A stretch of DNA of 64,000 nt from an uncultured Bacilli bacterium (GTDB lineage: Bacteria > Bacillota_I > Bacilli_A > RF39 > UBA660): NCBI GenBank assembly GCA_947626055.1, contig CANQQP010000001.1:10672-74671 (forward strand), given 5' to 3'. Numbering within the stretch: position 1 is the stretch's first letter; every line of letters begins with the position of its first letter. Of this stretch, positions 4,624-37,941 are shown piece by piece. The position numbers and the translations under genes are program-made. Below the pieces are notes generated by a model, which saw only the letters and a program-made list of their open reading frames with translations, did no database searches and was not told the DNA's origin.

Positions 4624-5256
4624 ATGAATAATTTAGTTGATGAAAATATGTCAATTTCCGAAATTAGGAATATTGTTAGTCATAGAATATATGAATTGAT
4701 TAACAATAATGCAGCCGTTTCTTTTAATATTGATCAGTTAAGAAAAATTCATTACTATCTATTTCATGGTTTATATCAAAACGCTGGTGAATTACGGAAA
4801 GATAACTTATTTAAGAAAGAAAAAATTATTGATGATGAAACAGTTTTATATGTTAACTATCAAGATATCGAAAATTATTTAAAGTATGATTTAGAAACGG
4901 AAAAAAAATATAATTACCAGGGTAAGACTACAGAAGAAATTTTAAAACACTTCGCTAAATTTACTGCTAATATTTGGCAGGCTCATCCTTTTTTGGATGG
5001 CAATACGCGAACAGTTGCTGTATTTATGATGATTTATTTTAAACAACTCGGTTTTCAACCGGATAATGAAGTTTTAAAAAATAATTTTAGCTATTTTCGA
5101 AATGCTTTAGTTTTAAGTAATTGCTTAGGAGAAAATATGCTCCCGCCTTATCAATATTTAATTAAATTTTATGAAAATGTCTTATTTTCCCAAAATAATG
5201 AATTAGATATAAAAGAAATGTTTGAATTTAATGAAAATGAAAGAAGGAAAAGATAA
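4624..5256 (+). CDS. Fic/Doc family protein (variant Fic motif HPFLDGNTRT)
   Basis: 210 aa with the Fic core motif HPFxDGN(T)R. Strong RBS AAGGAGG upstream. The stop overlaps the ileS start (TAATG). Confidence 0.75.
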   Translation: MNNLVDENMSISEIRNIVSHRIYELINNNAAVSFNIDQLRKIHYYLFHGLYQNAGELRKDNLFKKEKIIDDETVLYVNYQDIENYLKYDLETEKKYNYQGKTTEEILKHFAKFTANIWQAHPFLDGNTRTVAVFMMIYFKQLGFQPDNEVLKNNFSYFRNALVLSNCLGENMLPPYQYLIKFYENVLFSQNNELDIKEMFEFNENERRKR

Positions 5257-8200: not shown

Positions 8201-8357
8201 TGCTCAAGATAATATCAAAGAAGCGCTTTTAAACAATGAAGAATATATAAAAGGAGAGACTTTAGCGACGATTTTTAGATATATTCCTAATGATTGCTCA
8301 GAAAAAATTGATATTAATGGCAATGCTGCTAGTATAAATCTAAAAAAGGTTGCTTAA
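5256..8357 (+). CDS. ileS: Isoleucyl-tRNA synthetase
   Basis: 1033 aa. Contains a HMG-type HIGH motif region, KMSKS, an editing domain and a C-terminal zinc-binding CxxC pair. It is the type with a short C-terminus. Confidence 0.95.
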   Translation: MKNFKELDKRPVSEVEESILASWQSVNAMHDEQVKIHENDKTFVFYDGPAFANGFPGLHHMVSKNLKDTITKYHVMNGHKVIRKIGWDTHGLPIENHVEKKLGISSKKEIEALGVDKFNEECRKSVRENESAFSDLTSKMGQFFDIEHPYLTYKNEYIETEWWILKEMFQKGMFYEGTRVVPYCPHCGTGLATHEVAQNYQTDTAITVYVPFKKKNEDVYFLVWTTTPWTLIANVALCVNPGEEYALVESKDTKFILAAKLVNKVLGDEAKIIETFKGKDLEYQEYEQLIPSFEVDKKAFYVTCDNYVTMEDGTGIVHIAPAFGEDDANVGTAYDLPYLNPVGKDGCYVGGLWDKKFVHDVNEEIVTYLKENGKLFKRQKVAHEYPHCWRCDTPLIYYSMPSYYIKVSEMRDDLVKANSQVNWYPAYVGEKRFANWLANARDWNVSRSRYWGSPIPYWKCECGHAEMIGSMAELKEKAIEPIGDDFDLHKPYIDNVHLKCAKCGKEMTRIPDVLDCWFDSGSMPFAQYHYPFENKELWESQFPADFICEGIDQTRGWFYTLMVISTFLKGCSPFKNVLVNDLLLDSEGKKMSKSRGNIVEPFTTIKEYGADTVRFYLPYVSPVWTPLKFDISGLKEVYSKFFNPLKNSYSFFATYANIDKIDTDKCQVAYEKREEIDKWLLSKYNQLVKDVRTSFAEYDLNKMVHYLADFVSEDLSNWYIRRNRNRFWGNELNENKKSVYITTYEVLVGLAKLIAPITPFISEELYRNLTNEKSVHLSDYPTVNEKLINKEIEEKMDLVRNLISIGRMAREEAKIKVRQPISEVIIDGKNETILQDLVNLIEEELNVKKVVFEKDLSKYMNFSIKPNFKVAGPIFGGNIKEFATILNNYSEDDIKDLQNGKTPTIEINGEKFTISLDMVDVRINSKEGFDVGMENNNFIILNTNLTKDLIEEGIAREFISKVQNLRKLNGLEIENRIELEFNAQDNIKEALLNNEEYIKGETLATIFRYIPNDCSEKIDINGNAASINLKKVA

Positions 8358-11240: not shown

Positions 11241-12551
11241 ATGAAGAAAACTGTATGTTTAATTGGAAGACCTAATGTAGGAAAAAGCACCATTTTTAAT
11301 CGTTTAATAGGTGAAAAAAAATCTATAATTGCTGATAATCCTGGAATTACTAGAGATCGTATTTATGGGAATGCAACGTATAAAGATAAAACTTTTCTTT
11401 TAATTGATACAGGTGGAATTGATATGGGTCGAGATAACTTTAATGAAGATATTAAAGCCCAAGCTATGATTGCGATTGATGAATCAGATGTCATTGTTTT
11501 TATTGTTGATGGTAAAGAAGAATTGACAAGTAATGATTATCTTGTTCGCGATATGTTAATTAAAACAAATAAAAAAGTAATTGTTGTAGTAAATAAATTA
11601 GATAATCCTCAAAAAGAAGAACTAATTTATAATTATTATGAGTTAGGTTTTGAAACTGTTATACCATTAAGTGCTATTCATAATAATGGCTTTGATAAAC
11701 TTTTAGACGAAATAACTAGAGATTTTAATGAAAATGAACAAATAGAAGAAGATATTTTAAAATTTTGTATTATTGGGCGTCCCAATGTTGGTAAAAGTAG
11801 TTTAATAAATGCTTTATTAAATGAAGATCGTTCCATTGTCTCCAATGTAGCAGGGACTACTAGAGATGCCATTGATACACGTTTTCGCTATGATAATGAA
11901 GATTATATAGTAATTGATACCGCTGGTATGCGCAAGAGGGGCAAAATATATGAGAATATTGAAAAATATAGTTTAATTCGCTCTTTAAAAGCCATCGAGC
12001 GCAGTGATGTATGTGTCGTTGTTTTAAGTGCCGAAGAGGGGATAATTGAACATGATAAGCATATTGTCTCTTATGCTATTTCTTCAGGGAAAGCTTTAGT
12101 TTTAGTAGTAAATAAGTGGGATACGATTGTTAATCCTAATGAACAAATTAAAAAATGGAAGCAAAAAATTGCCAATGAATTTCAATTTATTCCTTATGTT
12201 AATGTCGTATTTTTATCCGCTAAGACTAAAAAAAGAATGCATATGCTGATGCCCGAGGTTATCAAAGCTTATGAAAATTCTTGTAAGCAAATAAAAACTT
12301 CAATATTAAACAATGTAATTATAGATGCCATGAATTTACATAATCCGCCATCTTATAAAGGCAAAAGATTAAAAGTTTACTTTGTCTCTCAAACCGAAAC
12401 AAAGCCCCCTAAATTTACTTTTCAGGTTAATAGTAAAAACTTAATTCATTTTAGTTATGAAAGATATCTTGAAAATAAAATACGAGAAAATTTTGATTTA
12501 ACTGGCACCCCTATAATTTTACAATTTAAAAATAAAGGAGAAGCAAAATAA
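11241..12551 (+). CDS. der: GTPase Der (EngA), tandem GTP-binding domains plus KH-like domain
   Basis: 436 aa. Two Walker A motifs GRPNVGKST and GRPNVGKSS, two DTAG/DTGG G3 motifs and two NK.D motifs. Confidence 0.95.
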   Translation: MKKTVCLIGRPNVGKSTIFNRLIGEKKSIIADNPGITRDRIYGNATYKDKTFLLIDTGGIDMGRDNFNEDIKAQAMIAIDESDVIVFIVDGKEELTSNDYLVRDMLIKTNKKVIVVVNKLDNPQKEELIYNYYELGFETVIPLSAIHNNGFDKLLDEITRDFNENEQIEEDILKFCIIGRPNVGKSSLINALLNEDRSIVSNVAGTTRDAIDTRFRYDNEDYIVIDTAGMRKRGKIYENIEKYSLIRSLKAIERSDVCVVVLSAEEGIIEHDKHIVSYAISSGKALVLVVNKWDTIVNPNEQIKKWKQKIANEFQFIPYVNVVFLSAKTKKRMHMLMPEVIKAYENSCKQIKTSILNNVIIDAMNLHNPPSYKGKRLKVYFVSQTETKPPKFTFQVNSKNLIHFSYERYLENKIRENFDLTGTPIILQFKNKGEAK

Positions 12552-18878: not shown

Positions 18879-19035
18879 AATATGTATAAAATCACTTGTT
18901 TATGCATATTTTTTTTGATAGAATAGATTTGGCTTGTTAGTCAAATAGACATGTTTAGGGATTTATATTGCGAGTGCCGAAGAGGTGTGATATAAAGTTG
19001 AACTAAGCAGATGAATTAACGAAGGAGGAATGATT

Positions 19036-20025
19036 ATGGAAGCCGTAGTTTCTATGAGTTATTTATTAGAAGCTGGAGTTCATTTTGGTCATCAAACAAA
19101 AAGATGGAATCCCAAAATGAAAGAGTATATTTTTACAACAAGAGATGACATTTATATTATCGATTTACAAAAAACAGTAGAGTGTATTGAAAAAGCTTAT
19201 GCTGCTATTAAAGAGATTGCTGCAAATGGAGGAACTTTCTTATTTGTAGGTACTAAAAAGCAAGCAAGTGAAGCAAGTAAAGAAGAAGCCTTACGTTCTA
19301 AATCTTTCTATGTTACGGAAAGATGGTTAGGTGGAACTCTTACTAACTTTAGAACAATTAGAAGAAGAGTAAAAAGATTAGAAGAAATCGAAAAAATGGA
19401 AGAAGATGGAACATTTGATGTTCTTCCTAAAAAAGAAGTAGTAGGACTTAAGAAAGAATATGAAAAATTAAATAGAGTTCTTTGTGGTATTAGAGATATG
19501 AATAAATTACCACAAGCTATGATAATAGTTGATCCTAAAAAGGAAATAAATGCTATTAGAGAAGCTAGAAAATTAAATATTCCGGTATTTGGAATTGTTG
19601 ATACAAATTGTGATCCAGATGATGTTGATTACGTTATTCCTGGTAATGATGATGCTGTTCGTTCTGTTAAAGTAGTATTAGGAGTATTAAATAATGCTAT
19701 TTGTGAAGCTAATGGTTTAGAAATGGTTGATTATGTAACCGAAGAAGATAAAAAAGGTAAAAAAGAAACGAAAATGCCAGATATGAACGAAGTAGCTAAA
19801 CCAAAAGAAGAAACTAAAAAAGAAGTTAAAGAAGAAGTAAAAGTTAAAGAAGAAAAGAAAGAACCTGCAAAAAAAGAAACTGCCAAAGAAACTAAAAAAG
19901 AAGAACCAAAAGAAGATTTAGCTAGTAAAACTTTAACTGAGCTTAAAGCTATTGCTAAAGAAAGAGGTATTAAAGGTTATTCAACAATGAAAAAAGATGA
20001 ATTAGTTCAAACTTTAAATAAATAG
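19036..20025 (+). CDS. rpsB: 30S ribosomal protein S2 with a roughly 90-aa Lys/Glu-rich C-terminal extension ending in a Rho_N-like motif
   Basis: N-terminal [17 protein letters not shown] is the S2 signature. GGAGG sits 7 nt upstream of the ATG at 19036. The C-terminal tail ..[37 protein letters not shown] resembles the Rho N-terminal domain motif. Confidence 0.9.
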
Positions 20026-24452: not shown

Positions 24453-24553
24453 ATTCTTCACCATTTTTATTCTTGGCAAAATATGGTAGTTATATGCATT
24501 TTATCTTGGTGATTTTCAGAAAATATATTATAATAATACCTGCAGGTGAGAGT

Positions 24554-25738
24554 ATGGAAAAATTATTTCAAGTAATGAATTTAAATAATCAAAAAAAGGT
24601 AGGGAATTTAACTAGTGAAGCTAAAGGCAAAGTTAAAAGTACCAAACATTTTCCAATTTTTAATATAGATAATGAAGAATATATATTTAAACCGCTTTCT
24701 AAAACGAAACCTTATACAACGCCGTTATTTGCTTATAGTGAAGTATATTGGTCTTATATTGTCAAAACATATTTTGATAATCAGGCGCCGTTATATCGTT
24801 TAGCAATTTATGAAAATATGTCTAAAGAACAAGAAAAATATTATAATAAAGGAACGATAGTTAAAAATCTAGTTAATCACAAACAAAAATTAGTTAATAT
24901 ATATGAATATTTTCTAGATCATCCAGAAAATAATTTAGATATAGAAAATTATATTAATTATTGTGAAAAATTTTATGATTATAAAAATATTTTAGAAACT
25001 AAATTTTTAAAAAACAATCCCCAATTGGGGCGCAAGATTGCAGAGCAAATATTATTATCTATTTTAAGAGGTGATCAAAATTATCATTATGAAAATGTTA
25101 ATTTAATTGCTGAGGAAGAGCAAATCATTGATGTCGCTCCACCAATAGATTACGAATTCTCAACTATGTTTTTTTGCCCTGAATTTCTTGATAAACACAT
25201 TATGGCGGTAGATGCTTTTTATAATTCTTTAATTCCTATTAGTCAAGATTGGTTACAAACTATAATGTCGGAATCAGGAATGTCTAAAGAAGAAGTAATG
25301 GAAAAATTTCAATCAGCCAATTATAGAAATTTAATAACGATTATAAAACTATACCCTGATTTAATAACGGAATTTTTAGCTAAATTAAACAAGCTAATGC
25401 AAGATATTAACACTTTAAAAATTACTGATGAAAACAATTTTATTACACCTTTTAATAGTTATTATTTTCAGGTCGGTCAATTTCGTTACAAACAAAAGGA
25501 TGAAGAAGCAGCCAAAAAAGCCGAAGATTTATTAAAGCTAGTTGCTATCGATAAAGAAAAATGTTTTAATGAAATAATTAAAGAAACCTATTTTAGTGCC
25601 TATTATTTAACTAATATTATTCAAAAGTATCAAGCTTTAATTTCTCTTGATATTCCTAATTTGGAAAATTTAACATTTGAAGAAATCGAAAAATTATTAA
25701 ATGAAAAAACAAACTTTAAAAGAGTATTATTTAAATAA
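24554..25738 (+). CDS. Hypothetical protein (possible atypical kinase-like fold)
   Basis: ORF open from 24473. The ATG at 24554 has RBS AGGTGAGAGT. No confident family assignment. Confidence 0.5.
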   Translation: MEKLFQVMNLNNQKKVGNLTSEAKGKVKSTKHFPIFNIDNEEYIFKPLSKTKPYTTPLFAYSEVYWSYIVKTYFDNQAPLYRLAIYENMSKEQEKYYNKGTIVKNLVNHKQKLVNIYEYFLDHPENNLDIENYINYCEKFYDYKNILETKFLKNNPQLGRKIAEQILLSILRGDQNYHYENVNLIAEEEQIIDVAPPIDYEFSTMFFCPEFLDKHIMAVDAFYNSLIPISQDWLQTIMSESGMSKEEVMEKFQSANYRNLITIIKLYPDLITEFLAKLNKLMQDINTLKITDENNFITPFNSYYFQVGQFRYKQKDEEAAKKAEDLLKLVAIDKEKCFNEIIKETYFSAYYLTNIIQKYQALISLDIPNLENLTFEEIEKLLNEKTNFKRVLFK

Positions 25739-26173
25739 TTATCTAAAGTTTGTTTCTTTTTTTAATTTTAGTAAATTATTTTGTTCTAATGACTTAAAAT
25801 CATAAGAAGGTGTGTTATCGATTTTAGTGTAATTTGCGAATATAGCTAAACGATATTCTTGATTTAAAATAAAAATATTATAGACAATAGTATTTTTTAT
25901 ATTTAAAGAATTTTTATATCCGTTTATTTCATAAATAATTTGATAATTATTAGTTATTTGATCCACTAAACCTGGAATAAAAGATTGATGGCTGCAACTA
26001 GGTTTAATAGCGACTTTCAAATGATTATCTTGAATTAGTTCCATATAAGTAACATCATCTTCCTGCCAAATAGAGCCGAGAAGGTTATCGCTATTATCAG
26101 TTATTAAGTAATCATAACTAATTTTTCCTACAATATTAAAAATTTTTAGTAGATAATTTAGAATATCATTCAT
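25739..26173 (-). CDS. Hypothetical protein
   Basis: ORF with RBS GGGGTG before MNDIL. Function unknown. Confidence 0.45.
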   Translation of the reverse strand: MNDILNYLLKIFNIVGKISYDYLITDNSDNLLGSIWQEDDVTYMELIQDNHLKVAIKPSCSHQSFIPGLVDQITNNYQIIYEINGYKNSLNIKNTIVYNIFILNQEYRLAIFANYTKIDNTPSYDFKSLEQNNLLKLKKETNFR

Positions 26174-26278: not shown

Positions 26279-27472
26279 ATGGCAATAATTAATAAACTTG
26301 ATCACTTTGGTAGAGGAATAATTTTTGATGAAAAAATTACCTTCGTTAATTATGCTTTACCTTCCGAAGAGATAGATTATCAAATTATTAAAAAAAGCAA
26401 AAAGTATAATCTTGCCCAAATAACTAATTTAAAAACCAAAAGTGCCGATCGCGTAGATGTGCCTTGTCCTTATTTTTTTAAGTGTGGAGGTTGTGCTTTA
26501 GAACATTTAAAATACTCTAGAACTCTCGAGTTTAAAAAAGAAAAAGTGGAAGAAATTCTTAATAAATATGCGAAAATTAAAAGTAATATAAATGTTATTG
26601 AAAATCCTCATCCTTATAATTATCGAAATAAATTATCTTTAAAGATTAAAAATGGTAAACTAGGTTTTTATGAAACAAAAAGTCATAAATTGGTAGAAAT
26701 TACGCAATGTTTATTAGCTCAAGAAAGTATTAATCAAATAATTAAGGACATTTCTTACTTTCATTTAAAAAATGCCGATATAACTTTTAGAACGAATTAC
26801 AATAATGAATTATTAATTATTATTCAAACTGCTGATAAAATAAATATTGATTTACCTTATTTAACTCAAAAACATAAAATAGTAGGAATCATAATAAATG
26901 ATGCTATATTTTATGGTGAAGATAAATTTATAGAAAAAGTTGCTAATAGATTATTTCAGGTTAGTTATAATTCTTTTTTTCAAATTAATCCCTATGTAAC
27001 TTCAAAAATTTTTGAGATAGTAACTGAAAATGTACAAAAGGAAAGTATTGTGGCGGACTTATATTGTGGTGTGGGAACTCTAGGAATTGTTGCTGCTCAA
27101 AAAGCTTGTCAAGTTTATGGTATTGAAATCGTACCGAATGCAATCAAAAATGCCTTGATAAATAAAAAAATGAATAAATGCTCTAATATTGAATTTTGTT
27201 TAGGGGATGCTAAAGAGGTTATTGATAAAATAAAAGCCAAGATTGATACAATTATTATCGATCCGCCTCGTAATGGGCTTAGTCAAGAGGCTTTAAGTAA
27301 TATTTTAAAAATCACTCCTAAGGATTTAATATATATTTCGTGTGATCCTATGACTTTAGCTAGGGATTTAAAAGTTTTAAAAGAGAAATATATAATAAAA
27401 AAAATATATATTGCCGATATGTTTAGTTATACTTATCATGTAGAAACTGTATGTATTTTAAGTCTAATATAA
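26279..27472 (+). CDS. 23S rRNA (uracil-C5)-methyltransferase, RlmCD/RumA family (TRAM domain plus 4Fe-4S cysteines)
   Basis: 397 aa. CPYFFKCGGC iron-sulfur cysteine cluster, SAM-binding motif DLYCGVGT, and a C-terminal ..DPPR.G motif. Confidence 0.8.
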   Translation: MAIINKLDHFGRGIIFDEKITFVNYALPSEEIDYQIIKKSKKYNLAQITNLKTKSADRVDVPCPYFFKCGGCALEHLKYSRTLEFKKEKVEEILNKYAKIKSNINVIENPHPYNYRNKLSLKIKNGKLGFYETKSHKLVEITQCLLAQESINQIIKDISYFHLKNADITFRTNYNNELLIIIQTADKINIDLPYLTQKHKIVGIIINDAIFYGEDKFIEKVANRLFQVSYNSFFQINPYVTSKIFEIVTENVQKESIVADLYCGVGTLGIVAAQKACQVYGIEIVPNAIKNALINKKMNKCSNIEFCLGDAKEVIDKIKAKIDTIIIDPPRNGLSQEALSNILKITPKDLIYISCDPMTLARDLKVLKEKYIIKKIYIADMFSYTYHVETVCILSLI

Positions 27473-27500
27473 ACTTTTATAATGGGATTAAAGTAGAGTA

Positions 27501-27527
27501 GAGAATTTTAAAAATAATTCTTTTTTT
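27501..27527 (+). terminator. Intrinsic terminator after the methyltransferase gene
   Basis: Stem gaatt/aattc with an AT loop, followed by T7. Confidence 0.55.
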
Positions 27528-27594
27528 AATAATAAATGATTTATATTTAGTTAAAAAAATATATGAAAACAAAGTAAAGGAGGAAATTATTTTA

Positions 27595-28613
27595 ATGCAT
27601 AATTTAATTAATAAAGATGTTTATATCGATGATTTTTCTAAAATTGTCGAAATGATTGAAACTAGAAGAGATAATGCTTATAGAAAAGTAAATGAAGAGC
27701 TTATCGCCTTATATTGGGATGTAGGATGTTTTGTCAGTGAAAAAGTTCAAAGTAATAAATGGGGTAGCAAAGTGGTTGATAATTTAGCAATGTTTATAAA
27801 AGATAAATATCCTACTTTAAAAGGATTTAATAGACGTGGGATTTATAGAATGAAACAATTTTACGAAACATATAAAGATGATGAAATTGTGTCACCACTA
27901 GTGACACAATTAAGTGGACTAATAACTTATTAATTTTATCAGGAACCAAAACAAGAGAAGAAAGACAATTTTATATTAAAATGGCTATAAAAAACAATTA
28001 TTCAAAAATTGAATTGGATAGACAACTTTCAAGTGGTTATTATGAAAGGTATATGCTATCTGATAGAACAATAAAACCATCAGTAAATAAAACAATTGAT
28101 GAAGGTGATTATCCAAATACTAAATTGTTAGATGTATATTCATTAGAATTTTTAAATTTACCGAATGAATATTCGGAAGTTGATTTAAGAAAAGCTATTA
28201 TAAATAATTTAAAAAATTTTATTTTAGAAATTGGCAAGTCTTTTACATTTGTTGGGGAAGAATATAGAATCCAAGTTGGTAATGAAGATTTTTTTATTGA
28301 TCTTTTATTTTATAATCGCGAATTAACTTGTTTAGTAGCTTTTGAATTAAAAGTTGGCAAATTTAAACCTGAATATGTTTCCAAAATGGATTTTTATTTA
28401 GAAGCTTTAGATAAACAAGAAAAAAAATATAATGAAAATCCAAGTGTTGGAATAATATTATGCGCGGATAAAGATGAAAAAGTGGTAGAATATGCCATGA
28501 GCAGAACAATGTCTCCCACAATGGTTGCGGAATATAAATTAAAATTAATAGACAAAAAAATATTAGAAAATAAATTAAAAGAAATTTCCGTTTTTATAGA
28601 AAAAGACAAATAA
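27595..28613 (+). pseudogene. DUF1016/YhcG-family PD-(D/E)XK nuclease gene disrupted by a -1 frameshift near 27912-27916
   Basis: The N-terminal part (27595-27913) and the C-terminal part (frame 0, open from 27885) together reconstruct ..QLS[W]TNNLLILSGTKTREERQFYIKMAIKNNYS.. typical of DUF1016. The sequence reads agtggact where agtTggact would keep the frame. The C-terminal part has a PD-(D/E)XK-like region, FIDLLFYNRELTCLVAFELK. Confidence 0.65.
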
Positions 28614-28648
28614 TATTTTAAATTAGAATAATGGAATAGGAGGTAAGT

Positions 28649-29353
28649 ATGACTATAGAAGAGGAAATATTTAAAAGAGCCAAGATTGATTTTGCTAAAT
28701 TATGTAAATATGGTTTTAAAAAGAATAATTTATTATATAAATATTCTCAAAATATCATGCATAATACTTTTCGAATTGATATTGAAATAAATAACGCAGG
28801 AATAGTCAAAGGGAAAATTTTTGATTTATCTTTTGAAGATGAATATACTAATTTTCGAATAGAAGATAATAGAGGATCATTCCAAAATAAAGTTAGGGAC
28901 GAATTTATAAATTTATTGCAAGATATTAAAGATAAATGTTCTACAAGGGAAGTATTTATATATGAGCAGACTAATAGAATTGCTAAAGCAATTACGCAAA
29001 AATATGGTGATGAGCCTGAATTTGAATGGGAAAAGTTTCCAGGATATGCAACTTTTAAAAATAATAATAAATGGTATAGTATTATAATGAATCTTAATTT
29101 TAATAAACTAGGGGAGAATTCTTCTAAAAAAGTAGAAATAATTAATTTAAAGCTAGATCCAACTACTATAGAAAATTTCTTAAAGCAAAAAGGATTTTAC
29201 CCTGCTTATCATATGAATAAAAAACATTGGCTTACGATTATCTTAAATGATACCATCTCGGATGCAAAAATAATGCAGTTAATTGCCCAAAGCTATAGCT
29301 ATACTATATCTAAAAAAATAAAGCAAAATAGTAAAAAATGTGATAGACTATAG
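28649..29353 (+). CDS. MmcQ/YjbR-family protein with an N-terminal extension
   Basis: The C-terminal half contains PGYATFKNNNKWYSII...GFYPAYHMNKKHWLTIIL, matching the YjbR/MmcQ signature (HMNKKHW). Confidence 0.6.
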   Translation: MTIEEEIFKRAKIDFAKLCKYGFKKNNLLYKYSQNIMHNTFRIDIEINNAGIVKGKIFDLSFEDEYTNFRIEDNRGSFQNKVRDEFINLLQDIKDKCSTREVFIYEQTNRIAKAITQKYGDEPEFEWEKFPGYATFKNNNKWYSIIMNLNFNKLGENSSKKVEIINLKLDPTTIENFLKQKGFYPAYHMNKKHWLTIILNDTISDAKIMQLIAQSYSYTISKKIKQNSKKCDRL

Positions 29354-29371
29354 GGAAAAGGAGAGATTTAC

Positions 29372-30187
29372 ATGAAAAAAGTTATTAGTATATTTTTAAC
29401 AATTATAATGTTTTTTACAGCCTTAGACATTATCGCAACTTATTCTATTCGAAATATTTTATCAAGTGATGCGATGCAAGAGTTAATTAAAGAAACGAAT
29501 GTTACGGAAATAATTGAAGAAGTTAAAGAAGATGGAAAGTTAGATTTTGTTTATCAAGAAGCCGAAAAATACGGAGTTAGTGAAGATAAAGTTGATGAAG
29601 TTGTAGCGTCCGAAGAGGCCAAAGAATATTATGGTACTATCTTACAAAAATATTTGGATGGAACTGACATTACCTTAGATGAAGACACGCAAAAATTACT
29701 AGATATTGCTACTGAAAAATATAATATAGATTTAACAGAAGATCAAAAAGAAGAATTAAAAGAAAATATTAATGAGGTAGTTATTGTTAATAAAAAAGAA
29801 AATGTTAATAATGAGTTAGCTAATAATATAAACAAATATACAAATTTTGTAAAAAACAATGCTTTATATATTATTGCTATTGTTAGTTTAATTGTGCAAA
29901 TATTATTAATTGGTATTCTAAATATTAAAAAAAGAAATTTTATGAGTTATTTTGCAGTTTGCCTATTATTACTTGCTATATTCATGGGTTTAGGTACATT
30001 TGGTTTGCAAATAGTTTTAGCCATTTTAAATCAAAGTGTAAATATTAATTTAGTCAAATTATTTGGCAGCATTCTTCAAAAAGGATATATATTTAGTCTA
30101 GTACTATTTGTGTTAATGATTATTTTCTTCGTCATAAATAAAAAAATTAAAATAAATGGGTCAATGGAGAAGGAAAATGAACATTAA
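29372..30187 (+). CDS. Hypothetical membrane protein (1 N-terminal plus 3 C-terminal TM helices, acidic central region)
   Basis: ORF with RBS AAAGGAGAG. No known motif. Confidence 0.5.
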   Translation: MKKVISIFLTIIMFFTALDIIATYSIRNILSSDAMQELIKETNVTEIIEEVKEDGKLDFVYQEAEKYGVSEDKVDEVVASEEAKEYYGTILQKYLDGTDITLDEDTQKLLDIATEKYNIDLTEDQKEELKENINEVVIVNKKENVNNELANNINKYTNFVKNNALYIIAIVSLIVQILLIGILNIKKRNFMSYFAVCLLLLAIFMGLGTFGLQIVLAILNQSVNINLVKLFGSILQKGYIFSLVLFVLMIIFFVINKKIKINGSMEKENEH

Positions 30188-30527
30188 AAATTACTATGTA
30201 AGTGATATAGAGGCTTTTAAAGATAAATTGCTAAAAGAGTTAATTGCCCATAATATTTCTTTTGTTGTAGTAGATAATGAAATTCATTATGCAAACAATA
30301 TAATAAGATTTAATAACAAGACTATTAAAGTAAATAATCAAAAAGAGCAAAGAAAACAATATCGGAATGCTCTAATTAAATTATTTTTAAAAGAAGAAAC
30401 TGCTGATAAAAAAGATTATGATATTCTTAAAAATAATACAAAATTTTCAAAGGCAGATAATTATCATAAATTTAAAAATTATTATAAAATCCAACCGCAA
30501 ATGCGTAGTTTAAAAAAATATCATTAA
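30177..30527 (+). CDS. Hypothetical small basic protein
   Basis: ORF overlapping the upstream gene by 11 nt (start MNIKNYY). Lys-rich. Confidence 0.4.
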   Translation: MNIKNYYVSDIEAFKDKLLKELIAHNISFVVVDNEIHYANNIIRFNNKTIKVNNQKEQRKQYRNALIKLFLKEETADKKDYDILKNNTKFSKADNYHKFKNYYKIQPQMRSLKKYH

Positions 30528-30574
30528 GGTAATTAGGCCATAATGGTTATATAAAAATATGAAATGCATATATA

Positions 30575-30603
30575 TTGACATTATATATTAATTTATCTAT
30601 AAT
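30575..30603 (+). promoter_or_regulatory. Perfect consensus sigma-A promoter (TTGACA-17-TATAAT) for the paralog array
   Basis: TTGACA at 30575-30580, a 17-nt spacer, TATAAT at 30598-30603. Confidence 0.55.
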
Positions 30604-30629
30604 AAAAGCCTTTAGAAAGAGGGATAAAT

Positions 30630-31250
30630 ATGCTAAGTGATGGTGATAGAAAATTATTAATTTCTAAAATAACAAAATATATAGACTTAGGCGGGTATAG
30701 AGAAAAATTGTCAGAACTTGAAGATAAGATTATAAGTTTTCAAGATGCTGATTTATCATTATATTGGATAAGAAATATTTCTCCTGATAGGGCGAAGGAT
30801 CATGTAGATATCATATCCAATACTCAAAACCCTGAAAAGATGTGGTTATTATTATTTAATGGTAAAATGGGAAAGAATCATATGTATATTCTGGCTAAAA
30901 ATATAATGAAAGCCAATAATGAAACTTATATTGCTAAATTATTGGATAAGAGGATAGCGAGAAAATTAAAAATGAATGGGTCAGTAATTGAGTGGTTATC
31001 TACTTATGGTAGCAAAGAGGTAATTTATCAAACTCTTATGGAACCTATAGAACTTGAATATATTTACCAAAAAAAATTAATATTGGCAATATATTCAAAA
31101 TTAACGAAAGAAGAAATATTTAGGTTAAAAGCAAAAATAGGTGAAACATCTTCCGTTTTAGATGATATAGAGCATGAGCTACAAAAGCAACAAGCTTATG
31201 AGGAAGTAATAACTTTTGTTAACACTCTCGTCCCAATAAAAGTTAATTAG
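30630..31250 (+). CDS. Hypothetical protein, paralog A of a three-member tandem family
   Basis: 206 aa. Shares the N-terminal MLS..RK.L motif and the core DA.LSLYW..N..P....DH..V with the two downstream paralogs. Confidence 0.6.
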   Translation: MLSDGDRKLLISKITKYIDLGGYREKLSELEDKIISFQDADLSLYWIRNISPDRAKDHVDIISNTQNPEKMWLLLFNGKMGKNHMYILAKNIMKANNETYIAKLLDKRIARKLKMNGSVIEWLSTYGSKEVIYQTLMEPIELEYIYQKKLILAIYSKLTKEEIFRLKAKIGETSSVLDDIEHELQKQQAYEEVITFVNTLVPIKVN

Positions 31251-31455
31251 CGTTTTAAAACAGGGGTTATTCCCTTTTTTTCGTTGTTTAATAATTCAAG
31301 ATATTGATTGGCTTTATTTCCCCAAATAATTTGCACTTTACCGCAATTTTGACATATTCTTTTATAATAAGTTTGCGGACCAATGATTTTTTCACCCCAT
31401 AAAATAATTTCATCATAGTAGCCATCACTAGGAAGAGTATTAGCATAAACATATA
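31247..31455 (-). pseudogene. Start-less gene remnant (69 codons, CxxC-containing C-terminal fragment)
   Basis: The minus-strand frame is open from a TAG to a TAA (LYVYANTLPSDGYYDEIILWGEKIIGPQTYYKRICQNCGKVQIIWGNK..). There is no ATG and only an internal GTG. It overlaps the stop of paralog A. Confidence 0.3.
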
Positions 31456-31551
31456 ACTAGAAAAAATATATAATTGAAAACAAATTTTTAGTTTTTGTTG
31501 CTTTTACTAATTATTTCTTTTATAATAAAGACTCATAGAAATGAGGAAAAT

Positions 31552-32175
31552 ATGTTAAGCTCTGAAAATAGAAAAGTTTTAGTTGAATCTTTAGATAAGT
31601 TTTTAAATAATAAAAATAATCATGGGGAAAAGTTATTAAGCATTGAAAAAAATATAGTAGCTCTTAATGATGCTGGATTATCTATCTATTTTGCTGAAAA
31701 TGTTCCTAATGCTAATATTAAATCTCATTTGGAAGTAGTTATAAAAAGCAATGACTCCCAAAGTATGTCGTATTTTCGTAGTATGCTTACTATAATGGGA
31801 TATGACGAATTGAAATCTGATTTAGAAAGAGCTATTTTGACTACCGGCAATGAAGATGCTATTAGAGAATTGTGCTATTCGTTTAATTGTGATATAAACG
31901 ATTCATTAAGACAGGAAGCACGTGAGTGGTTATTTTAAAATGGCAGTAAGGAGTGCTTAATATATTATGTACTGATCGAAATTAATAAGGAGGGAAATAT
32001 CATTTTTATAAAGAGAATTTTAGAAAAATTATATCCTCAATTAACTGATGCAGAGCGCAATATATTAAGACAAAAATATCCTAATTATATAAAAAGCATA
32101 GAACGTAATTATCAGGAGACTGTTGAGTTAGAAAAATTAACTCAATTGGTAAGAGAGTTAAATTCTCATAATTAA
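31552..32175 (+). pseudogene. Paralog B of the tandem family, interrupted by an in-frame TAA at 31936-31938
   Basis: The upstream ORF (128 aa, MLSSENRKVL..) ends ..AREWLF*. The same frame then continues stop-free for 78 codons, NGSKECLIYYVL... This aligns with paralog A ..EWLSTYGSKEVIYQTL... The combined length of 207 aa is close to paralog A's 206 aa. Confidence 0.55.
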
Positions 32176-32200
32176 TAATAAAAAAAGGAGATAAATTGTA

Positions 32201-32758
32201 ATGAAAAAAGAAACTGAAAAAAACCCTACAATTACCAATATTATTGAACGTATTGAAGAATATTTAAAACAAGAATTTTCTAGAAACCTTTTATTAAAAT
32301 TAGAACCCCAAATTTTGAAAATACAAAATGCAGAATTATCTTTATGGTTTGTTGAAAATGTTCCGAACTCTAAAATTTCAGATCATCAAGCCATCGTTAT
32401 GCAATATGGAAGCTTTGCTGATCAAAAAGATTTTGCTTCTTATGTTCCTGGCGCTGATATATCGCTAATTGGTAAGAACATTGCAGAAAAATATAAAGAT
32501 AGCGATACAGATTATATTTATGATTTTTTAAATGATGTTGATGTTGACGTAAAGGAAGCAATTCACTATATGGTAGAAGTATGGAATAAATTAAACGAAG
32601 AACAACGCCAAACACTTTATATAAAGTATGTTGGTGGTGTGTATGATACAATTTTTAAACAGAACTTAGCTGTCATAAAAGAAAACAAGGCTTTACAACA
32701 AGTAGATGAAATATCAGCACTTATTAGAACTTATCAAAATCAAAGTAAAAAAGCTTAA
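32201..32758 (+). CDS. Hypothetical protein, paralog C of the tandem family
   Basis: 185 aa. Core motif NAELSLWFVENVPNSKISDH shared with paralogs A and B. RBS AAAGGAG. Confidence 0.6.
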   Translation: MKKETEKNPTITNIIERIEEYLKQEFSRNLLLKLEPQILKIQNAELSLWFVENVPNSKISDHQAIVMQYGSFADQKDFASYVPGADISLIGKNIAEKYKDSDTDYIYDFLNDVDVDVKEAIHYMVEVWNKLNEEQRQTLYIKYVGGVYDTIFKQNLAVIKENKALQQVDEISALIRTYQNQSKKA

Positions 32759-32812
32759 ATACTAGTTAAATCTAGTATTTTTTGTTATAATTTTATAGAA
32801 GGATATGATAAG

Positions 32813-33745
32813 ATGAAAGATTTAAAAGTCGTATTTATGGGAACTCCTGATTTTTCTGTCCCAGTTTTAAATACTCTAATTGAAAATACTAATGTATCTT
32901 TAGTAGTTTGTCAGCCTGATAAATTAGTTGGAAGAAAACAAACTCTAATGGCACCGCCTATTAAAAAGGTTGCTTTAGAACATAATATTAAAGTATTTCA
33001 ACCTGTTAAAATCAAAGAAGATTATGAAGAGATAATTAATGAGCAACCTGATATAATAATTACTTGTGCTTACGGACAAATAATTCCTAAAAAACTTTTA
33101 GATCTACCAGGATACGGTTGTATTAATGTTCACGCTTCTTTACTGCCAAAATTAAGAGGGGGAGCACCAATTCATCATGCTTTAATAGATGGATATGAAA
33201 AAACAGGTATTACGATTATGTATATGGCTGAAGGTATGGACGATGGTGATATCATTGCCCAAGAAGAATATGTTATAAAAAAAGAGGACAATGTCGGTAT
33301 TTTACATGATACTTTAGCAAAAATGGGAGCTAAACTTTTAATAGAAACTTTGCCAATGATTATCCAAGGGACTAATAAAAGAGTAAAACAAAATCCGAAA
33401 GAGGTAACTTTTGCTTATAACATTAAAAGAGATGAGGAACATTTAGATTTTCATGATTCCTGTCAAAATATATATAATAAAGTACGCGGATTAAATCCTT
33501 GGCCGTTAGCTAATATAATTTTAGATGGAAAAGAAGTTAAAGTTTTGGAATGTGAATATAAACTCCAACAAACGCATAATATTGCGCAGGTTTGCGAACT
33601 GACAAAAGATGCTATCGGAATATCTGCTCAAGATGGTATTATTTATTTAAAAACTATAAAACCTTTTTCCAAAAAAATAATGACTGTTAAAGATTATTTA
33701 AATGGAATAAAAAAGGATGAATTATTAAATAAAGAAGTAAAGTAG
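32813..33745 (+). CDS. fmt: Methionyl-tRNA formyltransferase
   Basis: 310 aa. N-terminal VVFMGTPDFSVP, then HASLLP..RG.API and the C-terminal domain. Confidence 0.9.
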   Translation: MKDLKVVFMGTPDFSVPVLNTLIENTNVSLVVCQPDKLVGRKQTLMAPPIKKVALEHNIKVFQPVKIKEDYEEIINEQPDIIITCAYGQIIPKKLLDLPGYGCINVHASLLPKLRGGAPIHHALIDGYEKTGITIMYMAEGMDDGDIIAQEEYVIKKEDNVGILHDTLAKMGAKLLIETLPMIIQGTNKRVKQNPKEVTFAYNIKRDEEHLDFHDSCQNIYNKVRGLNPWPLANIILDGKEVKVLECEYKLQQTHNIAQVCELTKDAIGISAQDGIIYLKTIKPFSKKIMTVKDYLNGIKKDELLNKEVK

Positions 33746-33754
33746 GTGAGATAA

Positions 33755-34411
33755 ATGTTTCGTAAAAAGGAGCCTAAATATAAACAAACTAATCCTGATG
33801 ATCCTTGGATTATTAAAACTTGGCAAACACCGAGAGGACGAGCTGCTTTAAAATTAGGTATATATGGAGTTTTTATACTATTAGTTTTACTACTTATTTT
33901 CTTTAGATCTGATTTATCTCCCAAAGTATATAAAACTGTATATACTCCTTATAAGAAAGATAATAGTACGAAAATAGAAGATTTAAAAAAGAACAATTTT
34001 GCTTATAAATACACGATAACTATTAATGAAACCAAAATTTTATATTATGGTAATAAGCTTTTAAATATCGAAAGTGGCTATAAAGAAGATATTAATGGGA
34101 TAATAAAATATATTAAAGAAAATGATAAAGTTTATAAAGTTGGTCTTACGGAAAAAGAAGAAATGACTAATTTATATGAAAATCTAAATCCTAATTATTT
34201 TAGTGTAAATTATATTATGGAATTAATAGAACCTCAATTTTTAGAAAATAAAGATAATGAGCAAAATTATATTTTGGATAATGGAGTAGAGATTAGTATT
34301 AAGTCGGATAATTCTGATATTAAAAATATTATCATAAAAGATGGTGCGGCTTTATATGAATTAGAATATTCAAATATTGGTAAAGTTACCCAGAATGATA
34401 TTGAAAAGTAG
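33755..34411 (+). CDS. Hypothetical membrane-anchored protein
   Basis: 218 aa with a single N-terminal TM helix. It occupies the slot between fmt and rlmN. Confidence 0.5.
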   Translation: MFRKKEPKYKQTNPDDPWIIKTWQTPRGRAALKLGIYGVFILLVLLLIFFRSDLSPKVYKTVYTPYKKDNSTKIEDLKKNNFAYKYTITINETKILYYGNKLLNIESGYKEDINGIIKYIKENDKVYKVGLTEKEEMTNLYENLNPNYFSVNYIMELIEPQFLENKDNEQNYILDNGVEISIKSDNSDIKNIIIKDGAALYELEYSNIGKVTQNDIEK

Positions 34412-34418
34412 GAGTTTT

Positions 34419-35441
34419 ATGGAAAATATATTTGATTATCGTTTAGATCAATTAGAAGATTACTTTTTAAGCATTAATGAAAAAAAATTTAAAGCTACGC
34501 AAATCTATGATTGGTTATATAAAAAGCAAGTTTTTGATTTTACGCAGATGACTAATTTAAAAAAAGATTTAATTATTAAATTACAAGAAACATTTACCAT
34601 TAATTCCTTAGAAATTATCAAAAAACAAACGGACAAAGACACGAAGAAATATCTTTTTAAATTAGCTGATGAAAATTTTGTGGAAAGTGTCTTAATGTAT
34701 CATGATTATGGAGTTAGTATATGTGTGTCTAGTCAAGTTGGCTGTAATATGGGCTGTGCTTTTTGTGAAAGCGGACGCTTAAAGAAAGTCCGAAATTTAA
34801 AAACGCATGAAATGGTTGAACAAATCTTATTAGTAACCCAAGATATAAAAGAGCGCATATCATCCGTTGTCATAATGGGGATTGGAGAACCCTTTGACAA
34901 TTATGATAATGTAATGAATTTTATTAAAATAATTAATAATGATAAAGGTTTAGCTATTGGTGCTCGTCATATTACTGTATCTACTTGTGGTATTATTCCC
35001 AAAATTAAAATGCTTATGGCCGAACCGCTTCAAATAAATTTAGCAATTTCCTTACATGCTCCAAATAATGCCTTGCGTAGTAAATTAATGAAAATAAATA
35101 AAATTTATGATATTGATAATTTAATTGCTACTTTAAAAGAATATATTAAAAAAACTAATAGACGAGTTACCATAGAATATGTTACACTTAATGGTGTTAA
35201 TGATAGTAGAGAGTGTGCACTAGAATTAGCTCATTTATTAAAAGGAATGAATGCCTATGTTAATTTAATTCCTTATAATGAAACAAATAACTTAGGATTT
35301 AAAAAATCGTCAAAACAAACAATTTTAGAATTTTATGACACTTTAAAGAAGCAGAAAATTAATGTCACTATTAGGCGTGAATTTGGTTCTAAAATAGATG
35401 CAGCGTGTGGACAATTAAGAAGCAAAGAGGTGGATGCATGA
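34419..35441 (+). CDS. rlmN: 23S rRNA/tRNA (adenine-C2)-methyltransferase RlmN (radical SAM)
   Basis: Radical-SAM CxxxCxxC (GCNMGCAFCESG). Conserved C-terminal ..DAACGQL. RBS AGGAG before the ATG at 34419. Confidence 0.9.
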   Translation: MENIFDYRLDQLEDYFLSINEKKFKATQIYDWLYKKQVFDFTQMTNLKKDLIIKLQETFTINSLEIIKKQTDKDTKKYLFKLADENFVESVLMYHDYGVSICVSSQVGCNMGCAFCESGRLKKVRNLKTHEMVEQILLVTQDIKERISSVVIMGIGEPFDNYDNVMNFIKIINNDKGLAIGARHITVSTCGIIPKIKMLMAEPLQINLAISLHAPNNALRSKLMKINKIYDIDNLIATLKEYIKKTNRRVTIEYVTLNGVNDSRECALELAHLLKGMNAYVNLIPYNETNNLGFKKSSKQTILEFYDTLKKQKINVTIRREFGSKIDAACGQLRSKEVDA

Positions 35442-36187
35442 AAACATTTTATTTAACAGATGCGGGAAGAGTTCGAGATCATAATGAGGATAGCGTAACA
35501 ATTTTAAAAAATATTAATAATGAATATTTAATGATTGTGGCTGATGGAATGGGCGGTCATAGAGCGGGAGAAGTTGCTTCTTCTTTAGCTGTTACCCATT
35601 TAGGAAAAAGATTTACAGAAATTGCTTCTTTAGGAAGTAAATTAGATGCCGTAAATTGGTTAAATGATAATATTAATGAAATTAATAAAGGTATAATTGA
35701 TTACACTAAGCAATATCCAGATACAACTGGAATGGGTACGACGTTAGTTGTAGCTTTATTAACTCAAGATTATTTAATATTTGGTAATATTGGAGATTCT
35801 CGTGGGTATGTTTTAAAAAATAATAAACTTCATAAAGTCACGAAAGAACATACTTTAGTTAATCTTTTAGTCAGTACGGGTGAGTTAAGTGAGGAAGAAG
35901 CTATCAATCATCCTAAAAAGAATGTCTTAATGAAGGCTTTAGGAGCTGCCGAATCATGCGAACTAGATATTTTTGATGTTGATAAAGATATTGATGGTAT
36001 TATGTTGTGCAGTGACGGATTAACTAATATGCTAACTAAAGAACAAATTGAAAAAGTCTTAAATGATGAAGAATTAACTATGGAAGATAAAGTAAGAAAG
36101 CTAATTAGAAAGAGTAATGCTAGGGGTGGCACCGATAATATAACAGTAGCGTTTTTATTGAAGGAAAGTGAGGATGCTGGTCTATGA
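35438..36187 (+). CDS. PP2C-family Ser/Thr protein phosphatase (Stp/PrpC)
   Basis: DAGRVRDHNEDS, ADGMGGH and the C-terminal GG.DNIT motifs. RBS GAGGTGG upstream. Confidence 0.85.
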   Translation: MKTFYLTDAGRVRDHNEDSVTILKNINNEYLMIVADGMGGHRAGEVASSLAVTHLGKRFTEIASLGSKLDAVNWLNDNINEINKGIIDYTKQYPDTTGMGTTLVVALLTQDYLIFGNIGDSRGYVLKNNKLHKVTKEHTLVNLLVSTGELSEEEAINHPKKNVLMKALGAAESCELDIFDVDKDIDGIMLCSDGLTNMLTKEQIEKVLNDEELTMEDKVRKLIRKSNARGGTDNITVAFLLKESEDAGL

Positions 36188-37941
36188 TAATGAAAGGTCA
36201 GAAGATTAATGATCGTTATCAAATTATAAAAACTATTGGCGAAGGGGGCATGGCCAATGTTTATCTAGCATATGATACTATTTTAGATCGCAACGTAGCT
36301 GTTAAAGTATTACGCGGGGATTTAGCTAATGATGAGAAATTTGTTCGTCGTTTTCAAAGAGAAGCCCTTTCAGCAAGTAGTTTATCTCATCCTAATATAG
36401 TGGAAGTTTATGATGTTGGTGAAGATAATGGCCAATATTATATAGTTATGGAATATATTGAAGGTAAACATTTAAAACAACTTTTAAAAAAACGTGGAAA
36501 CTTAACAATTACCGAAGTAATTGATATTATGTTACAAATTACCGATGGTATAGCAGTAGCTCATGATTCGTATATTATTCATCGAGATATCAAGCCGCAA
36601 AATATTATGATTTTAGAAAATGGGTTAGTCAAAATCACTGATTTTGGGATTGCTATGGCAATGAATGCCGCACAACTTACTCAAACTAACTCGGTAATGG
36701 GATCAGTCCATTACTTGCCTCCTGAGCAGGCGAGTGGTTCGGGTTCTACTTTACAAAGTGATATCTACTCAATGGGAATTTTAATGTATGAGCTTTTGTG
36801 TGGTCATTTACCTTATAGAGGCGATAATGCGGTTGAAATTGCTTTAAAACATTTAAAAGAGCCATTACCATCAATTAGAGAATATTTGCCAAATCTTCCG
36901 CAAAGTGTGGAAAATGTCATTTTAAAAGCTACTGCTAAGAATCCTAAAAATCGTTATGCTGATGCTAGAGAAATGCATGAAGATTTAAAAACAGTTATGG
37001 ACGATTCCCGCGTAGATGAGCCAAGATATGTTTATCCTTATCCCGAGGATGGCTTAGAAGACGCGGAAGTTACAAAAGATTTACAAGTCAAAGAAGAGCC
37101 AGAAGAAGAGGAAGAAGTTGTGGCTAAACAAATTACTAAAGATGATTTGAAAAAACAAAATAAACTTTTAATTATTTTAGGTTCTATTTTTGCCGGATTA
37201 GTTATTATTACTACAACTATTGTTTTAATATTGCCAATATTAACGGGTGGTAAAGAAGTAACCGTTCCAGATGTGGCGGGAATGAGTGTCAAAAAAGCTA
37301 TTAAAACTTTACAAGATAAAGGTTTTAAAATAGCTGATGATCAAAAAGAAACTGCTTCGGATGATATAGAAGAAGGCAAAGTTGTTAAAACTAATCCAGC
37401 TAGTGGATCAAAAAAAATTAAAGGTAAAGAAGTAACTTTATATGTTTCCACTGGTAGCAATCAAATTACAGTTGAAGATTATACCGGCCAAAATTATATT
37501 GAAGTTAAAGCAAAATTGGAAGTTCAAAATATTTATGTTGTCGTTGAAAAGAAAGATGTGGAAAGTTCTAATGAAATAACCGATACGCAAATTATTGGTC
37601 AATCTGTTGAAGCTGGTAAGAAATTGAAACCAAAAGAGACAATTACTTTATATATTCCTAATATAACAACTAAATATCCCGATTTTTCTCGAGGATATAG
37701 TGTAGAAGCTGTCCAAAATTGGTGTAATACTTATGGCATAACTTTAAATATTGAATATATTGAAACATCTGATTATGCACCAGGGACAATTTATTACCAA
37801 AGTAAAACAGTAGGTTATACTGTATCAGCAGGCTCTACGCTAAATATTAAAGTGGCAACAGCTAAAGAAAATGAAACGGCCGGTAATGATGTTAGTGTTC
37901 CAGATGAAGAAGATGTTTGTGAAACTACAGGATTATGCTAA
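36184..37941 (+). CDS. prkC: PASTA-domain Ser/Thr protein kinase (PrkC/StkP type)
   Basis: Kinase subdomains GEGGMA..VYLA, HRDIKPQNI, DFGIA. A TM helix followed by PASTA-like repeats. The start overlaps the phosphatase stop. Confidence 0.9.
   Translation: MIMKGQKINDRYQIIKTIGEGGMANVYLAYDTILDRNVAVKVLRGDLANDEKFVRRFQREALSASSLSHPNIVEVYDVGEDNGQYYIVMEYIEGKHLKQLLKKRGNLTITEVIDIMLQITDGIAVAHDSYIIHRDIKPQNIMILENGLVKITDFGIAMAMNAAQLTQTNSVMGSVHYLPPEQASGSGSTLQSDIYSMGILMYELLCGHLPYRGDNAVEIALKHLKEPLPSIREYLPNLPQSVENVILKATAKNPKNRYADAREMHEDLKTVMDDSRVDEPRYVYPYPEDGLEDAEVTKDLQVKEEPEEEEEVVAKQITKDDLKKQNKLLIILGSIFAGLVIITTTIVLILPILTGGKEVTVPDVAGMSVKKAIKTLQDKGFKIADDQKETASDDIEEGKVVKTNPASGSKKIKGKEVTLYVSTGSNQITVEDYTGQNYIEVKAKLEVQNIYVVVEKKDVESSNEITDTQIIGQSVEAGKKLKPKETITLYIPNITTKYPDFSRGYSVEAVQNWCNTYGITLNIEYIETSDYAPGTIYYQSKTVGYTVSAGSTLNIKVATAKENETAGNDVSVPDEEDVCETTGLC

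Follow-up and report, generated by a model that had tools for sequence, protein, structure and literature searches.

Does a short run of broken and orphan genes in an otherwise conserved chromosomal neighborhood represent one imported island in decay, or several adjacent elements with histories of their own? This question is raised by positions 27595–32758 of a stretch of DNA of 64,000 nucleotides (nt) from an uncultured Bacilli bacterium (assembly GCA_947626055.1, contig CANQQP010000001.1; the whole stretch is hereafter called the window, and coordinates are counted from its first letter). Here, a YhcG/DUF1016 nuclease gene, an MmcQ/YjbR-family gene, genes of a membrane protein and of a 116-amino acid (aa) protein, three tandem paralogs (A, B, and C) and a small Cys/His gene on the opposite strand lie between an RNA methyltransferase gene and fmt. 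The original prediction, based on these letters alone, took them to suggest a horizontally acquired defense or accessory module, now eroding, or else a place prone to sequencing errors. Comparison with related genomes favors another explanation, with a probability of roughly 0.72: the interval is a zone of chromosomal plasticity resident in one rabbit-gut “uncultured Bacilli” species, in which three parts are juxtaposed, and not one imported island. The first part would be a solitary YhcG gene between the methyltransferase and YjbR genes, polymorphic in presence and dead where present; the second, the YjbR, membrane-protein and 116-aa genes, which would be intact in every conspecific genome; and the third, a lineage-restricted array of A, the opposite-strand small gene, B and C, with copy number probably varying by deletion.

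Gene Content and Lesions of the Interval

The genes and lesions reported in the original prediction were all recovered where it had placed them, using the list of open reading frames (ORFs), their translations and profile matches. Together with the flanking genes and the segments defined by comparison with relatives (designated L001 to L012, see below), they are as follows:

26279–27472, plus strand: RlmCD/TrmA-like RNA (uracil-5) methyltransferase gene, left flank (Pfam tRNA_U5-meth_tr, E 2.7e-25)
27460–28634: YhcG indel segment of 1.17 kb, delimited by blastn breakpoints and junction sequences
27595–28613, plus strand: YhcG/DUF1016 PD-(D/E)XK nuclease pseudogene, split into 27595–27933 and 27915/27981–28613
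27913–27917, plus strand: YhcG lesion, AGT-TGG minus one T at 27915, which shifts the frame at Trp108, within the conserved QLSW motif
28649–29353, plus strand: MmcQ/YjbR-family gene, 234 aa (Pfam YjbR, E 1e-17)
29372–30187, plus strand: membrane-protein gene, 271 aa (highest 19-residue hydropathy 2.88)
30177–30527, plus strand: gene of a small soluble protein of 116 aa (the ORF extends upstream to 30156, and gene calls in relatives start with the Met matching 30177)
30529–31243: segment bearing A with its promoter, deleted in L001, L002 and L012
30575–30603, plus strand: sigma-70 consensus promoter TTGACA-17-TATAAT, with 12 of 12 consensus matches (a match only), upstream of A and inside the segment deleted with it
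30630–31250, plus strand: paralog A, 206 aa, intact, with no aa differences from its L006 counterpart (dN 0)
31247–31456, minus strand: remnant of the small Cys/His gene, with the start codon and approximately 15 N-terminal codons lost, C5 and H7 included
31452–31494: unrelated 43-nt sequence, which stands in place of approximately 132 nt of the divergent small-gene/B promoter region of L001, L002 and L006
31552–32175, plus strand: paralog B pseudogene, where TAA at 31936–31938 replaces GAA (Glu129)
32201–32758, plus strand: paralog C, 185 aa, intact, with hypervariable mosaic alleles
32813–33745, plus strand: fmt (methionyl-tRNA formyltransferase gene), right flank (Pfam Formyl_trans_N and Formyl_trans_C on orthologs)

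The surrounding DNA is that of a spore-forming Firmicute, with SpoIVA and the GerA/GerB/GerC operon beside housekeeping genes, and has low G + C content (approximately 0.21–0.35 over 22–38 kb).

Comparison of Strains

Relatives were identified by a scan of species-representative genomes for the methyltransferase, which led to rabbit-gut metagenome-assembled genomes (MAGs) labeled “uncultured Bacilli”; further loci (L006–L008, L010, and L012) are the contigs of proteins obtained in the search for the paralog family. The panel comprises five conspecific metagenome assemblies, with flanks 96–98% identical to those of the window at the nucleotide level, and four more distant relatives. The methyltransferase protein is 97, 95, 63, and 40% identical to that of the window in L001, L002, L003, and L004, respectively; a look-up of the exact window protein gave no record. 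Flanks of L006, L007, and L008 show 97.7% nucleotide identity to the window, and those of L012, an automated Logan assembly, 97.6%, while fmt is 96–100% identical among conspecifics. L010 represents another species, the methyltransferase being 69% identical at the aa level. L008 is a short contig in which the YhcG site is not covered; the six genomes compared for presence are the window, L001, L002, L006, L007, and L012. The states of the variable genes are the following:

Window: YhcG with a frameshift; A intact; small gene truncated at the 5′ end; B with a nonsense mutation; C intact
L001: YhcG with TAG and an extra A; A deleted; small gene, B and C intact
L002: YhcG absent; A deleted; small gene intact; B deleted; C intact
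L006 and L007: YhcG absent; A, small gene, B and C intact
L008: YhcG site not covered; A, small gene, B and C intact
L012: YhcG absent; A deleted; small gene with an altered 5′ end; B with a frameshift; C with a frameshift in a poly-A run

The erosion that had been suspected from the single sequence is real and recurrent, as the same genes are broken by different lesions in independent conspecific assemblies. It is also concentrated, with no indels relative to L006 or L001 in the flanking genes at 32800–37000 or in the region 28600–30400. The description of the region as accessory holds for YhcG, A and B, which vary in presence among the six genomes, and fails for the YjbR, membrane-protein and 116-aa genes, which are constant. 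Relatives with the gene set intact at the same place, a pattern expected of a core region, were found in part: L006 and L007 carry the whole set, with YhcG missing.

A Solitary Polymorphic YhcG Gene

Both nuclease domains are recognizable in the window. The product of 27595–27933 matches DUF1016_N (PF17761, E 4.2e-26, residues 16–107), and that of 27981–28613, the YhcG_C PD-(D/E)XK domain (PF06250, E 2.4e-53), with the D...E-x-K signature readable in the C-terminal part as FFIDLLFY...AFELK. The two halves also match the PADLOC candidate defense system PDC-S02, with the best E-values of 5.7e-38 (N-terminal) and 1.3e-75 (C-terminal). A single uninterrupted ORF of approximately 340 aa covering both domains is absent from the window copy; restoration of the T yields a 339-aa protein aligned over 100% of its length to intact homologs of 341–343 aa, with identity up to 87%. 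Given one T missing at Trp108, the window strain would make no full-length protein.

YhcG is present in two of the six strains (the window and L001), and is differently broken in each. In L001 (approximately 11634–11640) the same Trp codon is changed from TGG to TAG, and the second lesion, an extra A in an A-run, is located 60 nt further downstream, at the equivalent of 27977. Independent origin of the window and L001 lesions is the most parsimonious explanation. The other four strains lack the gene with identical breakpoints (27459/28635), so that in them the YjbR ribosome-binding site comes immediately after the stop codon of the methyltransferase gene. Haplotypes with and without YhcG already differ in the four final codons of this gene. 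A search for a target-site duplication or inverted repeats around the segment yielded only AT-rich matches at chance level. The “strong terminator” at 27501–27527, which had been taken for the island border, is a 6–8-bp AT-rich hairpin followed by a U-run (27497–27527, plus strand), with a folding energy of –6.3 kcal/mol and z = –0.65 relative to shuffled sequences; it was not called by a terminator scan and is situated inside the YhcG-specific segment.

The YhcG family is very large (8000 candidates with E < 1e-30) and mobile, and its members are present on 529 plasmid and 14 phage records. They are enriched beside restriction–modification (RM), bacteriophage exclusion (BREX) and invertible loci (PMC9881135). 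As observed here, genes of this family are typically solitary and patchily distributed; the frameshift and the absence of adjacent RM or BREX genes, seen in the published contexts, set the window copy apart. PDC-S02 is a candidate system, and the defense role of intact members is likewise a candidate one.

Resident Genes

The YjbR, membrane-protein and 116-aa genes are intact in all six strains, with nucleotide identity of 95–99%, and the membrane-protein gene is also found in the more distant L003. Ratios of non-synonymous to synonymous substitution rates (dN/dS; here and below, Nei–Gojobori pairwise estimates) among conspecifics are 0.02–0.16 for the YjbR and membrane-protein genes and 0.29–0.62 for the 116-aa gene. 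The YjbR and membrane-protein genes are under purifying selection, and the set of three genes is resident and not decaying. Tight spacing suggests that the three genes form an operon.

In the 234-aa protein, the match to the MmcQ/YjbR domain (PF04237) covers the C-terminal 100 residues and scores 65 bits, compared to the Pfam gathering cutoff of 30.1. Unlike known members, this protein has an N-terminal extension of approximately 115 residues belonging to no known family, and it scores 42 bits against the NCBIfam equivalog cutoff of 183. For the membrane protein and the 116-aa protein, no significant family was found in Pfam, PADLOC, NCBIfam, or PHROGs.

In other species the site between the methyltransferase gene and fmt is filled differently. 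The slot in L010 contains a 111-aa gene and a GH25 lysozyme gene, and then A, the small gene and C; that in L003, the membrane-protein gene, a GH25 lysozyme gene, a gene of an AAA_14/DUF4143 ATPase and a deaminase-like gene (the latter identified from sequence only). This slot accepts varied cargo across species. The GH25 lysozyme in both slots (L003, 3652–6678; L010, 5466–6952) carries an Ig-like domain.

The Paralog Array

A, B, and C are old paralogs; in BLASTP alignments between them, A and B are 29% identical over 170 aa (E 1e-13), C and B, 42% over 38 aa (E 1e-8), and A and C, 32% over 53 aa (E 3e-7). The array was found only in this lineage, with paralogs also in L010, where YjbR is absent. 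Deletions of A share breakpoints, and what is left is a short sequence similar to the final codons of an A-type gene. The B frame of the window runs for 78 codons past the in-frame TAA, and in L001 and L006 B is intact at 207 aa, with Glu (GAA) at the stop position.

The small gene remnant, which comprises the 3′ four-fifths of the gene, is convergent with A, and the two share 4 nt. The gene is intact in L001, L002, L006, and L010, encoding 81 aa with one Cys near the N-terminus and a conserved C-x-x-C (Zn-ribbon-like). The protein is 74% identical to the L010 copy at the aa level, and evolves at an ordinary rate. Its family contains only three proteins in the database searched, and no significant match was observed in PADLOC, PHROGs, NCBIfam, or Pfam; the AlphaFold2 model has a predicted local distance difference test score (pLDDT) of 53 and is unusable. 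In L012 (7200–8100), the small gene encodes 74 aa with a different 5′ end, and the frameshift in C lies in the poly-A run six codons from the start; the array lesions of this assembly could be assembly errors or could mark slippage-prone sites.

B and C diverge much more than their surroundings. In a 200-nt identity profile, the flanks and the region 28.6–30.2 kb show 95–100% identity, and B and C, only 70–86% at the nucleotide level. The flanking genes mostly have dN/dS of 0.01–0.25 (0.33 for fmt compared with L006), with dS mostly 0.03–0.15. For B, dN/dS is 0.31–0.33 relative to L006 and L001, at dS of approximately 0.43. For C, dN is 0.19–0.31, dS, 0.24–0.41, and dN/dS, 0.54–0.96; in 30-codon windows pN/pS peaks at 1.05–1.14, six alleles being too few for site models. 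Divergence of C within the species equals that from L010 (dS of C is 0.41, compared to approximately 1, with a range of 0.6–1.3, for the L010 flank). The alleles are mosaic, as the window C has the N-terminal block in common with L002, and the central block, with L001 and L012. The mosaic structure of B and C alleles suggests recombination.

C is open in five of six alleles. As the chance of an open 185-codon frame at this nucleotide composition is approximately 1e-8, the five open alleles are kept by selection. Members of the array would collect nonsense and frameshift mutations strain by strain, with B and especially C outpacing the flanks; single paralog copies may be expendable and prone to recurrent loss, with selection usually holding open at least C. 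The window strain would then retain only A and C in working condition, with YhcG, B and the small gene being pseudogenes.

A Family Based on a 28-Residue Helical Repeat

The paralog family is extremely narrow, with only 10 members among 5.8 billion proteins. AlphaFold2, applied to the alignment of these 10 sequences, yields for A an all-alpha structure of 13 helices with pLDDT 90.6. An exhaustive profile search produced 447 remote metagenomic relatives, 82 of them with E up to 1e-10. Many of the remote relatives match profile positions of approximately 20–105 in 2–10 stretches, and their tandem 28-residue units follow the consensus Y-x-F-A-x-x-V-x-G-A-D-I-x-x-H-x-x-V-I. The spacing of the G[AS][DN] motif is 28 residues in 16 of 25 measured intervals, and in C three 28-residue units are in register (residues 42–125). 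These data and the model of A predict that A, B, and C are all-helical solenoids built on a 28-residue repeat. Since A and C have no hydrophobic segment, they should be soluble cytoplasmic proteins.

We observe no significant match of A, B, or C in Pfam, NCBIfam, PHROGs, or PADLOC. Sequence searches of the PDB gave no matches, scans of viral contigs with the family alignment and with the remote homolog P0157 found none, and P0157 had no tblastn match on plasmid or phage records. The 28-residue family, with no model in Pfam, NCBIfam, or PHROGs, is an uncatalogued one. The remote repeat homologs, including P0132, P0133, P0138, P0151, and P0157, are proteins of 57–1676 aa, one of them fused to an AAA_5 ATPase domain. 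The P0151 gene follows dnaE among housekeeping genes, and P0131 and P0157 are encoded on contigs of approximately 1 kb, where the genomic context is uninformative; a cluster look-up for the remote homologs yielded no names.

The model of A, a stack of helical hairpins, resembles Sel1, TPR, and ARM-like alpha-solenoids; the best Foldseek matches are Sel1, designed helical-repeat and armadillo proteins, none of them significant (E > 0.02). Unlike these solenoids, A, B, and C have a 28-residue period with a consensus of its own.

Tandem arrays of orphan immunity genes are known in other bacteria, e.g., esaG/DUF600 in Staphylococcus aureus and acquired interbacterial defense clusters. Similarly to them, A, B, and C are small, soluble, cytoplasmic tandem paralogs with copy number varying by deletion and fast-evolving mosaic alleles, and the cognate toxin of such arrays need not be nearby. 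They differ in having no match to DUF600 or to the Pfam Imm families, no genes for a toxin or for secretion in the window, and the 28-residue helical-repeat fold. By analogy only, an immunity function may be proposed. More generally, the paralogs might serve in binding or specificity, keeping pace with a partner that itself varies (e.g., a phage protein or a toxin); this analogy-based role is suggested with low confidence. Their being founding, fast-evolving members of an undescribed 28-residue family that act as interchangeable specificity or immunity determinants, with allelic diversity maintained by diversifying or balancing selection and with recombination even across species, is a rather doubtful extension of it.

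Weighing of the Alternatives

Several observations count against a plasticity zone assembled from three parts. Each single lesion of the window could in principle be an artefact of assembly or strain mixture, and the C frameshift in L012, located in a poly-A run of an automated assembly, may be an error. Sharing of one Trp codon by two YhcG lesions is a coincidence of approximately 1 in 340, awkward for fully independent events. In two distant lineages, an intact close homolog of YhcG stands 3′ of the methyltransferase ortholog, which could mean that YhcG is ancestral at this site and not inserted. The dN/dS ratio of C is near 1 and never clearly above it, and with six alleles relaxed constraint is inseparable from diversifying selection. 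Finally, there is no toxin, secretion-system or phage gene beside the array, and no homolog with a known function.

The first of these points can be extended to all lesions, by assuming sequencing or assembly errors or a chimeric consensus of mixed strains, with all genes intact in the organism. The source indeed appears to be metagenome-assembled, its relatives being MAGs and NODE contigs of metagenomes; moreover, the YhcG lesion of the window is a 1-nt length change in TT, and the second lesion of L001 falls in an A-run, as the C frameshift of L012 does in its poly-A run. However, no two of the three window lesions are alike (a 1-nt deletion, a G-to-T substitution and an approximately 130-nt replacement) and affect only variable genes, while approximately 12 kb of aligned flanks contain no indels. 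Independent assemblies break the same genes in other ways or delete them, and A, B and YhcG are missing through structural deletions, with identical breakpoints common to several assemblies. Error on this scale is improbable, and we infer that the lesions of the window are mutations.

An alternative specific to YhcG is that of a selfish homing-type nuclease cassette, which inserts 3′ of this particular methyltransferase gene, invades, and then decays. The closest intact homologs, P0011 and P0012 (87 and 85% aa identity to the repaired window copy), are encoded directly downstream of orthologous methyltransferase genes (L015, 4632–7026; L016, 423–2703) that are themselves only 44–50% identical to the one in the window, and the proportion of synonymous differences (pS) between lineages is lower in YhcG (0.31–0.48) than in the methyltransferase (0.54–0.57, saturated). 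The nearer relatives L003 and L010 have no YhcG, and the haplotype difference at the methyltransferase 3′ end resembles a co-conversion tract. On the other hand, homologs at 79–81% identity are found in unrelated contexts, a methyltransferase neighbor was observed in none of 80 metagenome loci with homologs at 55–74% identity, and cross-lineage nucleotide similarity stops at the ends of the YhcG ORF, with no shared target or flank visible. The same data would be explained by vertical descent under strong constraint with repeated losses, which from these sequences does not seem separable from site-directed re-acquisition. As an account of the locus, homing is quite unlikely.

A single horizontally acquired defense island in decay, with YhcG, YjbR, the other genes and the paralogs arriving together, as proposed originally, is very improbable. 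The YhcG match to PDC-S02, the frequent occurrence of this family on plasmids, the different cargo of the L003 and L010 slots, and the number of orphan genes could be reconciled with it. The distributions of its supposed components nevertheless differ: YhcG is found in two of six strains, the YjbR, membrane-protein and 116-aa genes in six of six, and the paralogs occur in L010 without YjbR. Marks of mobility are also missing. There is no integrase, transposase or recombinase domain among the window ORFs, no tRNA gene in the window (the only Rfam match being a T-box at 4.4 kb), no meaningful repeats flanking the interval, and no compositional shift, G + C content being 0.22–0.29 inside the interval and 0.21–0.33 outside. 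What was proposed as an island is instead made up of three parts, each with a history of its own. Of its defense role, the YhcG match to PDC-S02 stands; no other protein matches PADLOC or the Pfam immunity families, where the sole match is a sub-threshold one of a 123-aa ORF to Imm26 (E 0.03), and A, B, and C have none.

Programmed recoding, with a –1 slip at AGU-GGA re-reading U-GG as Trp in YhcG and read-through of UAA in B, is hardly credible: the shift at AGT|GGA does restore the exact ancestral Ser-Trp-Thr and both downstream frames are open to their normal ends, but open frames are expected for recent lesions, the YhcG site has no slippery heptamer, thousands of YhcG homologs are single ORFs, the TAG and extra A of L001 are beyond rescue by any single event, and B orthologs encode plain Glu at the stop position.

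A plasticity zone of three juxtaposed parts, retained here as the preferred explanation, provides a population-level example of turnover at a small chromosomal hotspot. Within one species, a widespread candidate defense nuclease would have been lost in three separate ways, and an orphan gene family would be diversifying and being pruned at once. For annotation, this means that the split ORFs should be treated as pseudogenes and that the “island” label is wrong for the YjbR, membrane-protein and 116-aa genes; the uncatalogued 28-residue helical-repeat family is flagged for classification. The biological stakes are modest.

Other Genes of the Window

As the labels Tenericutes and Bacilli raise suspicion of an alternative genetic code, with TGA or TAG read as sense, stop codon usage was considered: 44 long ORFs end with TAA (28), TGA (8) or TAG (8), and such a code was rejected. 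Housekeeping genes are all open under translation table 11.

The GerA operon and the methyltransferase gene are separated by two genes, 24551–25738 (plus strand) and 25739–26173 (minus strand), which belong to no Pfam or NCBIfam family; their products are 94–98% identical at the aa level among conspecifics, and the 395-aa one is 62% identical in L010. On the other side of the interval, in many Firmicutes rsmB is located between fmt and rlmN. In the window this place is occupied by the gene of a 218-aa protein (33755–34411), which has no match in Pfam or NCBIfam and is conserved in L003 and L010.

The T-box leader (4388–4594, 125 bits) is situated 30 nt upstream of a 210-aa ORF (4624–5256), directly followed by a class-I aminoacyl-tRNA synthetase gene (5256–8357). 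The ribosomal protein S2 gene (19030–20025) encodes 331 aa, with a C-terminal Rho_N domain at residues 296–326 (E 8e-11), an unusual extension of S2.

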